Below are positions 2,838 to 25,200 of a stretch of 64,000 bases of DNA, piece by piece (position 1 is the stretch's first letter; the number at the start of each line of letters is the position of its first letter). Below the pieces are notes generated by a model. The model was not told the origin of the DNA. It ran no database searches and saw only the letters and a list, made by a program, of their open reading frames with translations. The stretch lies in the NCBI GenBank assembly GCA_021735655.1, contig JAIPGM010000005.1:1-64000 (forward strand). Direction: 5' to 3'. Source of the DNA: Candidatus Omnitrophota bacterium. Its GTDB lineage: Bacteria; Omnitrophota; Gorgyraeia; Duberdicusellales; 4484-171. The translations under genes were made by a program, and so were the position numbers.

Positions 2838-4436
2838 TTACCGCTTGAGCAAGGCAGCCTTAATGAAATCCCTAAATAAAGGGTGAGCAGAGTCAGGTTT
2901 AGATTTAAATTCAGGATGGAACTGGCAAGCTACAAACCAAGGATGGTTTTTTAATTCAATTATCTCAACTAAATTCTTTTGAGGATTAATCCCTGAAAAA
3001 ATCATACCTGCCTTTTCCATTAAATCTCTATATTTATTATTAAACTCATAACGATGTCGATGGCGTTCAGAAATTTTTTCTTTCTTATAGGCCTTGTAAA
3101 CTGTCTCTTTTTTCTTCAAGCAACAATCGTAAGCACCCAAACGCATCGTTGCCCCCTTGTCGCTTAGCATCTTTTGATTTTCAAGTATTGAAATAACCGG
3201 ATATTTAGTATTTTTATTAAACTCTGAAGAATTTGCATTTTTCAGTCCACAAACATTACGCGCAAATTCAATTGCTGCCGTCTGCATCCCTAAACATATG
3301 CCTAAAAAAGGAATTTTATTTTCCCGGGCGAATTTAACTGCTTTGATCTTTCCTTCGATGCCACGGTTACCAAAACCACCCGGGATTAAAATTCCTTTAA
3401 CTTCTTTTAAATATTTCAAAGCATCTTTCTTTTCAATATCTTCAGAGTCAACTTTCTTTATCGAAAGTTTTACGTTATTCTCAATTGCCCCATGGACTAA
3501 GGCCTCATAAATTGACTTATAGGCATCCTGGAGGGCTATATATTTTCCAACAACTGCAATTTCAACCTTTTTTGTCGGAGATTTAACTCTCTTAAGCATC
3601 TTAATCCAATCGGTCAAGTTATCTTCTGGACATTTTAGATTAAGTAACCTAATAATTAACCTGTCTAGTCCCTCCTTCTTGAAAGCAACCGGAACCTCAT
3701 AAATACTTTTTACATCAATAGCAGTAACCACCGCCTCCTTATCGACATTACAAAAAAGAGAAATTTTTTCCCGTGCCTCTTTATTGAGATTTCTTTCGGT
3801 TCTGCAAACAATAATATCGGGAATAATTCCTATCTCACGAAGTTTACCAACACTATGTTGGGTCGGTTTAGTTTTAATCTCTCCGGCCGACTTTATATAA
3901 GGAACTAATGTTACATGGATGTTAATTGCATAGTCGCGACCTAAATCAAGTCGCAGCTGTCTAATTGCCTCCAGGAAAGGGAGTCCCTCGATATCCCCTA
4001 CAGTCCCTCCGATTTCAACAATTACAACATCAACCTGCTGTTTGGTGGCAACTTTGATAATACCTTTTTTTATCTCATCGGTTATGTGAGGAATAATCTG
4101 AACAGTTTTTCCTAAATAATCACCGTGTCTCTCTTTGGAAATAACCGAGTAATATATTTTTCCAGTAGTAATATTATTATCTTTGGTTAACTTAGAATTA
4201 GTAAAACGTTCATAGTGTCCTAGATCTAAATCAGTCTCTGCTCCGTCGTCGGTAACGTAAACCTCTCCGTGTTGAAAAGGATTCATGGTCCCCGGATCAA
4301 CATTAATATAAGGATCACACTTGATAATTGTGACTTTAAGCCCCCGGGATTCAAGAAGCTTGCCAATTGCAGCCGCAGCAATCCCCTTGCCTAAACTCGA
4401 TACGACACCACCGGTAATAAAAATATATTTTGCCAT
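2838..4436 (-). CDS. pyrG: CTP synthase.
   Basis: N-terminus [18 protein letters not shown]...[13 protein letters not shown] and C-terminal GATase domain (GICLGMQ, HPEF) are canonical PyrG. Confidence 0.95.
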
Positions 4437-25149: not shown

Positions 25150-25200
25150 AAAAATAAAAAAGCGCATTATTCCAAATATCCACCTTTGGAATAACACGCC
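25150..25200 (-). terminator. Intrinsic-terminator-like hairpin plus U-run in the 5' leader immediately upstream of the OMP-amt operon RBS.
   Basis: On the minus strand: GCGUGUUAUUCCAAA-(loop)-UUUGGAAUAAUGCGC (~14 bp stem) followed by UUUUUUAUUUUU, then the RBS AAGGGAG and ATG. There is no room for a promoter between the terminator and the start. Confidence 0.6.

Follow-up and report, generated by a model that had tools for sequence, protein, structure and literature searches.

A terminator hairpin before ammonium transporter genes of an Omnitrophota bacterium as the probable target of a GAF-ANTAR antiterminator

Introduction

Directly in front of a putative OMP gene, two ammonium transporter genes (amt), and glnB in the 64,000-nt stretch of Omnitrophota DNA analyzed here (the window) lies a strong terminator-like hairpin, and its position raises the question of whether it simply closes the sigma factor gene upstream or governs transcription of the nitrogen genes downstream. 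The Omnitrophota are uncultured and widespread; a literature search found nothing on gene regulation in the phylum and no link between it and ANTAR proteins. The latter are RNA-binding antiterminators whose target is a pair of hairpins with stems of at least 3 bp and hexanucleotide loops carrying A1 and G4, one of which lies over the 5' part of a terminator, and bioinformatic work has predicted such sites in several phyla, where they precede genes for P-II, ammonium transporters, and glutamine and glutamate synthases (PMC3369931).

Results

Organization of the nitrogen cluster

All coordinates are those of the window; the genes of the cluster lie on the minus strand, and their features are read on that strand (Table 1). 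Leaders are named A (before the OMP gene), B, C, and G, and the 80 loci used for comparison, described below, are numbered L001-L080.

Table 1. Genes and leader elements of the nitrogen cluster, listed in the direction of transcription
Feature	Position	Strand	Details and basis
GAF-ANTAR one-component regulator, 233 aa	30400-29699	-	Pfam ANTAR E = 1.3e-19, GAF_2 E = 1.1e-19; 4.5 kb upstream of the leader A hairpin
Leader B, before gltD-like/gdhA unit	29691-29599	-	sigma-70-like promoter 29691-29664 (11/12 matches + TG)
Leader B hairpin AGGAGAC-AAGGAC-GUCUUUU	29658-29639	-	
Leader B terminator	29651-29606	-	U-tract 29610-29599
Leader B candidate hairpin UGC-ACAGCA-GCG	29635-29624	-	
GltD-like pair	29547-27324	-	upstream of gdhA
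gdhA	27213-25885	-	upstream of the sigma gene
Leader G, before sigma gene	25845-25779	-	canonical dual hexaloop: UAAC-AAAGAA-GUUA 25845-25832 and GGC-AAAGAA-GCC 25826-25815
Leader G terminator	25817-25784	-	overlapped by second hairpin; U5 25783-25779
ECF-like sigma-70 family factor, 170 aa	25758-25246	-	TIGR02937
-35-like box GTTACC	25259-25254	-	in last codons of sigma gene (stop 25248-25246); predicted alternative-sigma promoter
-10-like box TACTTA	25237-25232	-	16-nt spacing, constant across loci
Upstream hairpin ACUUAA...UUAAGU	25239-25209	-	11-bp stem, 9-nt loop; stable; folding
P1 hexaloop hairpin AACAC-AAAGGC-GUGUU	25208-25193	-	loop 25203-25198, A1 and G4; hexaloop scan, covariance model R2, folding
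Leader A intrinsic-terminator stem-loop	25203-25158	-	5' arm 25203-25185, loop 25184-25177, 3' arm 25176-25158; consensus terminator scan and folding
Candidate P2 UCC-AAAGGU-GGA	25190-25179	-	loop 25187-25182, A1 and G4; terminator apex
U-tract UUUUUUAUUUUU (U6AU5)	25161-25150	-	terminator scan, sequence
RBS and start of first gene	25149-25134	-	AAGGGAG 25149-25143; ATG 25136-25134
Controlled genes OMP-amt-amt-glnB	25136-21229	-	ORFs and Pfam
Putative OMP, 263 aa	25136-24345	-	guess; signal-peptide-like N-terminus, C-terminal ...SYGF
amt (first)	24329-22983	-	Pfam
amt (second)	22931-21585	-	Pfam
glnB/P-II	21570-21229	-	Pfam
Leader C, before glnA	21194-21056	-	promoter box 21194-21168
Leader C hairpin GCAC-AAAGUUU-GUGC	21133-21119	-	
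Leader C hairpin AAAAC-AAUGGU-GUUUU	21106-21091	-	overlaps terminator 21101-21065; U5AU5 21066-21056
glnA, glutamine synthetase	21027-19696	-	Pfam
Fis-type HTH protein, 73 aa	18897-18676	-	Pfam HTH_8 E = 1e-13

A preliminary description of this DNA had proposed a single OMP-amt-amt-glnB-glnA operon. The order amt, amt, P-II, and glutamine synthetase is upheld by Pfam; glnA, with a promoter-like box and an attenuator of its own in its leader, does not simply close the same operon. The name given to the first gene is only a guess, as its product yields no match in Pfam or NCBIfam, even at E <= 10, and the assignment is drawn from the two terminal features listed in Table 1. An OMP-like gene is kept directly upstream of amt among the comparison loci (OMP-like genes occur in L006, L012, L017, L023, L027, L032, L033, and L049), and the protein may be an outer-membrane channel for ammonium. 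A metagenome scan with the OMP protein for close leaders returned a single locus, which was truncated at its 5' end and uninformative. Divergent extra P-II-like genes, with 33-40% identity to the P-II of the window, are found just upstream of OMP/amt in some loci (L018 11664-11978, L023 6901-7083, L027 1323-1637, and L070 13322-14017). Downstream, beyond glnA, the cluster continues with a class-I amidotransferase, the HTH gene of Table 1, and gltB. The HTH and gltB genes overlap at TAATG, which holds the stop codon of the former and the start codon of the latter, and the HTH product may be an extra small regulator co-transcribed with glutamate synthase.

An intrinsic terminator adjoins the ribosome-binding site

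The minus-strand sequence past the stop codon of the sigma gene is AGUUUUUUUACUUAAUUGAUUGUAGAGGUUAAGUAAAAACACAAAGGCGUGUUAUUCCAAAGGUGGAUAUUUGGAAUAAUGCGCUUUUUUAUUUUUAAGGGAGAAAAUUAUG, in which the terminator scan located a hairpin of 19 pairs followed by UUAUUUUU. The stem is composed of 16 Watson-Crick and 3 G-U pairs, five of the 19 being G-C, with a loop of 8 nt and the U-tract directly 3' to it, such that the first four U residues of the tract (25161-25158) double as the last pairs of the stem. A stable stem-loop with G+C-rich pairs and a following U-tract is the hallmark of an intrinsic (Rho-independent) terminator. Folding of the 121 nt from 25250 to 25130 with RNAfold gave -34.2 kcal/mol, as compared with -17.1 +/- 2.7 kcal/mol for dinucleotide shuffles (z = -6.4), and none of 200 shuffles folded as well. 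The strong terminator that the preliminary description had placed before the OMP gene is thereby borne out, with a stem of 19 rather than ~14 bp. Its statement that the hairpin sits on the RBS does not hold, since the hairpin makes no pairs with the RBS and ends just before it; the AAGGGAG and ATG reported close behind the U-run are as described, the RBS following the U-tract with a gap of 0 nt (25150 to 25149). As the U-tract ends immediately 5' of the RBS, a terminated RNA would be without the RBS, and there is no room for a promoter between the terminator and the RBS.

With its start 43 nt past the end of the sigma gene and every hallmark of intrinsic termination, the hairpin looks as would be expected if it were an ordinary 3' terminator of the sigma gene only and OMP-amt were expressed from a separate, unregulated start. 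The space that a downstream promoter of this kind would need is absent, and further evidence against this explanation comes from the promoter-like box and the comparative data presented below.

The U5-7 A U4-5 form is common to the U-tracts of attenuators in the window (25161-25150, 21066-21056, and 29610-29599, minus strand) and in L049, L006, and L005, and these tracts commonly adjoin the RBS. RNA terminated at such sites would lack translation signals.

A predicted promoter and an ECF-like sigma factor

The protein encoded immediately upstream matches TIGR02937 over its full length (residues 3-165; E = 2.5e-9) with 37 bits, below the curated cut-off of 42.9 bits, and the model is matched by all 12 family members scanned, of which 11 are orthologues encoded in other loci and one is the protein of the window (best E = 4e-18). 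Profile matches in the PDB are mainly to sigma region 4 and LuxR-type HTH domains. The earlier naming of this gene as a sigma factor is probably right, with the window protein itself scoring below the cut-off.

The pattern GTTACC-N16-TACTT occurs exactly twice in the window, at 25259-25233 in leader A and 21194-21168 in leader C. Among the comparison loci, it is found in 12 of the 13 that bear the sigma gene (all 13 if N17 is allowed) and in none of the 67 others (Fisher p = 2e-13). The fuller form, GTTACC-N16-TACTT(A/G)TA, is present at 17 sites, all on the gene strand, in L005, L006, L012, L014, L017, L018, L055, L056, L058, L061, L063, and L070, where it stands shortly past the sigma gene and again past P-II. 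From the TIGR02937 matches and the co-occurrence of box and gene we infer that the 170-aa protein is probably an alternative sigma factor with the GTTACC box as its promoter.

The OMP-amt transcript thus probably starts at a dedicated promoter that overlaps the stop codon of the sigma gene, with a predicted start near 25228-25224. In the preliminary description, a transcript from the sigma gene or its promoter had to pass the terminator before the transporters could be expressed; the start upstream of the terminator and the 0-nt gap to the RBS agree with this, whereas the origin of the transcript would be the dedicated promoter and not only that of the sigma gene itself. The conserved box upstream of the hairpin is a second argument against a hairpin that serves the sigma gene only. 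The leader A terminator may, in addition, end transcripts reading through from the sigma gene.

A hexaloop hairpin overlaps the terminator

The P1 hairpin, which precedes and extends into the terminator, has the attributes of an ANTAR target: its stem exceeds the 3-bp minimum and closes a six-nucleotide loop, AAAGGC, that carries A1 and G4. The P1 loop and 3' arm supply the first 11 nt of the terminator 5' arm, and this overlap with the 5' part of the terminator makes the two folds mutually exclusive. P1 is the proposed site of ANTAR binding. The candidate P2 starts 2 nt past P1 (the 3-bp cores are 4 nt apart), and the orthologous leaders do not retain its apex hexaloop, having a pentaloop in L006 and a heptaloop in L012. 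When the nascent RNA was folded as it would exist before synthesis of the terminator 3' arm, P1 and a variant of P2 formed, without the upstream hairpin. The P1 and P2 fold amounts to -6.1 kcal/mol against a minimum free energy of -25.2 kcal/mol dominated by the terminator stem, suggesting that termination would be the default state and that the competing fold would persist only with the help of a protein. Default termination combined with a protein-held alternative is the logic of ANTAR regulation. Folding, which the preliminary description had proposed as a check, yields both the strongly non-random terminator (z = -6.4) and P1 as a competitor for its 5' arm.

The same description had suggested antiterminator pairing with the upstream hairpin ACUUAA...UUAAGU. 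This is probably not the case, because the likely promoter is located before the terminator: the 5' arm of the upstream hairpin holds the -10 box and the predicted start is in its loop, so the hairpin is probably incomplete in RNA made from the GTTACC promoter. It is also absent from L006 and from leader C, the glnA leader, and P1 folds without it; as an antiterminator partner it was rejected. An inverted repeat pairing the -10 box TACTT with a downstream AAGTA is seen in leader A and in L012 (~3254-3270), and not in leader C or L006.

These observations bear on whether the attenuator could answer to some other effector: a small molecule acting on a riboswitch, a different RNA-binding protein, a leader peptide, or an alternative fold that involves the upstream hairpin. 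That the GAF-ANTAR protein binds the leader is a prediction, the upstream hairpin is stable, and the leader contains a 6-codon frame with a UUG start (25230-25210), all of which leave some scope for such a mechanism. The mini-frame lacks an RBS and is not conserved, on which grounds leader-peptide attenuation was discarded; the upstream hairpin is likewise not conserved. Rfam produced no match anywhere in the window at the gathering score and, between 20900 and 30000 at E <= 10, only meaningless sub-threshold matches, none of them a credible family. The leader is short, ~75 nt from the predicted start to the U-tract, with the hexaloop hairpin as its sole conserved element; the motif fits the ANTAR consensus, and an ANTAR gene is syntenic with such leaders in the 80 loci. 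A different effector is accordingly considered unlikely.

Sister leaders in the window

A hexaloop scan identified four gene-strand hairpins that overlap strong terminators, all in the intergenic leaders of the nitrogen cluster (leaders A, B, C, and G). Each has an A1/G4 hexaloop on a C-G closing pair, positioned over the 5' arm of the terminator; about 0.02 such matches would be expected by chance in the ~700 nt of leader sequence, a figure that we scaled from the shuffle mean for the core pattern.

Two covariance models were built from other genomes only: R1, describing the dual-hairpin (class I) arrangement and trained on 20 sites, and R2, describing the single hairpin. Leaders A, B, G, and C are the top four R2 matches in the 64 kb, with A first (21.3 bits, E ~0.01) and B second (19.5 bits). 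R1 has one significant match in the window, leader G (39.6 bits, E = 3.7e-8), which displays the two hairpins and short linker in full. Leader A gave no match to R1 (E > 10) and, with P2 absent in L006/L012, is not claimed as a canonical dual site.

The hairpin and its hexaloop could in principle be a chance product of an AT-rich intergenic region, and the core 10-nt pattern ACAANGNNGT by itself is indeed not enriched across the window (7 matches against 4.5 expected from shuffles). Specificity must then come from position and context. The fold z-score, the presence of four co-located instances, their ranking first by models made from other genomes, and the covariation of the stem described below render a chance origin hardly credible at all.

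The GAF-ANTAR regulator

The ANTAR domain of the 233-aa regulator scores 70.2 bits in Pfam against a cut-off of 27.3; the genome encodes an ANTAR protein, and its gene is syntenic with the proposed targets in the 80 loci. This part of the protein matches PDB entries 6wsh, 1s8n, and 4akk. The GAF domain is nearest to those of PtsP (EI-Ntr; E = 1.7e-19) and NifA (E = 3.2e-15) in NCBIfam, with matches to 3ci6 and 3trc in the PDB. In NifA and PtsP, the GAF domain responds to 2-oxoglutarate, glutamine, or both, and by analogy the signal sensed here is probably one of these two metabolites.

In ~30 of the 80 loci glnA lies immediately upstream of the GAF-ANTAR gene, often with a class I site of its own (e.g. 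L032 528-557, L049 8403-8433, and L018 8370-8402), an arrangement in which the regulator may be autoregulated. The GAF-ANTAR gene of the window instead follows pilus-assembly-like genes.

Conservation of the sites in related loci

Orthologues of the regulator (63-86% identity) were collected from 80 loci, nearly all in genome bins of Candidatus Omnitrophota and all picked for carrying the ANTAR gene. Across this set the gene stands beside glnA, the sigma gene, OMP, amt, P-II, gltB, gdhA, and gltD. Dual hexaloop sites linked to a terminator were counted 104 times on the gene strand, as compared with 10 on the opposite strand, and are located in front of those nitrogen genes; the 36 matches to R1 are all on the gene strand. 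Class I sites consist of (U)AAC-AAnGnn-GUU(A), 3-8 nt, GGC-AAnGnn-GCC, and then a terminator, whereas in class II sites xGRAC-AAAGRC-GUYCx comes directly behind a promoter and is fused to the terminator. Leaders behind a GTTACC promoter have GCAC-RUWGnn-GUGC and then xAC-AAAGGC-GUx with the terminator, often as two attenuators in tandem. Where attenuators are found in tandem past a GTTACC box (L005, L006, L017, L018, L033, L055, L056, L061, and L063), the second takes the form GAC-NNRGGC-GUC, in which G4 is kept and position 1 varies. A second hexaloop formed by the terminator 3' arm and U-tract (class II, AAYGYC loops) was not counted as evidence, as it follows automatically from complementarity to GRCGUU.

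For covariation, 95 sites were chosen by sequence only (ACAA.G..GT with a nearby U-run). Pairs 3-5 of the stem covary, 76% of cells being paired as compared with 34-51% when the 3' partner was slid, and none of 500 shuffles reached the score; the third pair alone occurs as AU, GC, GU, CG, and UA. Loops with A1 and G4 were counted 135 times at the 5' edge of 1065 terminator-like hairpins; G1/G4 loops reached 92, and 14 decoy types gave 43-75. This specific enrichment at terminators would not be expected of hairpins that merely end the sigma gene, and the same design of hairpin and terminator stands behind promoters with no upstream gene to terminate, in leader B and in many loci. Together with the missing space before the RBS and the conserved promoter-like box, these data make a terminator of the sigma gene only very improbable.

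Discussion

Proposed mechanism

The attenuator or antitermination geometry envisaged in the preliminary description is substantiated at the level of sequence by the upstream promoter-like box, the overlap of P1, the GAF-ANTAR gene, the three sister leaders, and the 80 loci. We conclude with good confidence that the hairpin is the terminator part of an ANTAR-type attenuator of transcription, which lies in the leader of OMP-amt-amt-glnB, 5' to these genes, and would be opened by the GAF-ANTAR protein. Structures, motif, conservation, and genetic linkage to the ANTAR gene are the observations from which a course of events, including promoter use, binding, read-through, and signal, can be proposed. 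Transcription would start at GTTACC-N16-TACTTA (25259-25232), presumably read by the neighboring ECF-like sigma factor. With no protein bound, the 19-bp terminator would form and RNA polymerase would halt in the U-tract just before the RBS. Active GAF-ANTAR protein would bind P1, possibly also the adjacent UCC-AAAGGU-GGA, and keep the first 11-19 nt of the terminator 5' arm in an alternative structure, resulting in read-through. The attenuators of leaders G, B, and C, ahead of the sigma gene, the gltD-like/gdhA unit, and glnA, would be opened by the same protein.

The sigma gene of the window has a canonical ANTAR site in front of it, as do those of 12 of the 13 sigma-bearing loci, which suggests a feed-forward arrangement. 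In such a two-tier circuit, the GAF-ANTAR sensor, probably responding to 2-oxoglutarate or glutamine, would unlock the sigma leader; the sigma factor would then fire GTTACC-N16-TACTT(A/G)TA promoters before OMP-amt-glnB and glnA, and those leaders would again need the ANTAR protein, acting at many sites, including leader A, through a single hexaloop. We put this circuit forward tentatively and rate it a little short of probable. A search of the literature found no description of a two-tier GAF-ANTAR/sigma feed-forward circuit.

The analysis offers a concrete regulon for nitrogen assimilation in the Omnitrophota, proposed to take in amt, P-II, glutamine synthetase, GOGAT, and GDH, and specifies its RNA sites, its regulator, and a candidate pair of sigma factor and promoter. 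It also provides a natural system in which to study a GAF-ANTAR protein, representing a large architecture class, and a case for asking whether one hexaloop is enough for an ANTAR protein to act on. In genome annotation, the implication is that terminator-like hairpins directly before nitrogen genes in Omnitrophota genomes should not be equated with operon ends.

Comparison with known systems

The closest parallels are the dual-hexaloop RNAs targeted by ANTAR proteins (EutV/eut of Enterococcus faecalis, NasR/nasF, and AmiR/amiE; Ramesh et al. 2012, PMC3369931; PMC8934654), with which the leaders described here share A1/G4 hexaloops over a terminator and termination by default; in the published systems it is the protein that stabilizes the competing fold. 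As in those systems (PMC3369931), an ANTAR gene is nearby and the targets belong to nitrogen metabolism, including amt, P-II, and glutamine and glutamate synthases. Leader G is a textbook ANTAR target, in which GGCAAAGAAGCCC can be set against AGCAANGRRGCUY, the sequence shared by the eut sites (PMC3369931). The regulator differs from EutV, NasR, and AmiR in having a GAF sensor in place of a receiver, pseudo-receiver, or NIT domain, and no characterized GAF-ANTAR protein is named in PMC3369931 (2012) or PMC7496416 (2020). Both hairpins are required for full binding by EutV (PMC3369931); leader A and many related sites depart from the canonical dual hexaloop in having one conserved hexaloop hairpin, fused directly to the terminator.

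In Geobacter sulfurreducens, the ANTAR response regulator GnfR relieves premature terminators before glnK, amtB, and nif genes via CAGGCAANGGCGCC (PMC2995071). The site of this GnfK/GnfR system (Ueki and Lovley 2010, PMC2995071) reads GGC-AANGGC-GCC and is similar to the AAAGGC and AAAGAA loops of the leaders described above; there, as is proposed here, a second regulatory tier acts on promoter activity. GnfR is a phosphorylated response regulator working with RpoN/GnfM promoters, whereas the window encodes a one-component GAF regulator, and promoter control apparently falls to an ECF-like sigma factor with an ANTAR site in the leader of its own gene. With NifA and PtsP (EI-Ntr) the regulator has the GAF domain in common; unlike theirs, its output is an RNA-binding ANTAR domain.

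By most of its defining features, the leader A element belongs to the ANTAR-target attenuators already known for nitrogen genes. What is new is the host, a member of the uncultured phylum Omnitrophota, in addition to the GAF sensor, the frequent single-hairpin form, and the apparent coupling to a dedicated sigma factor.
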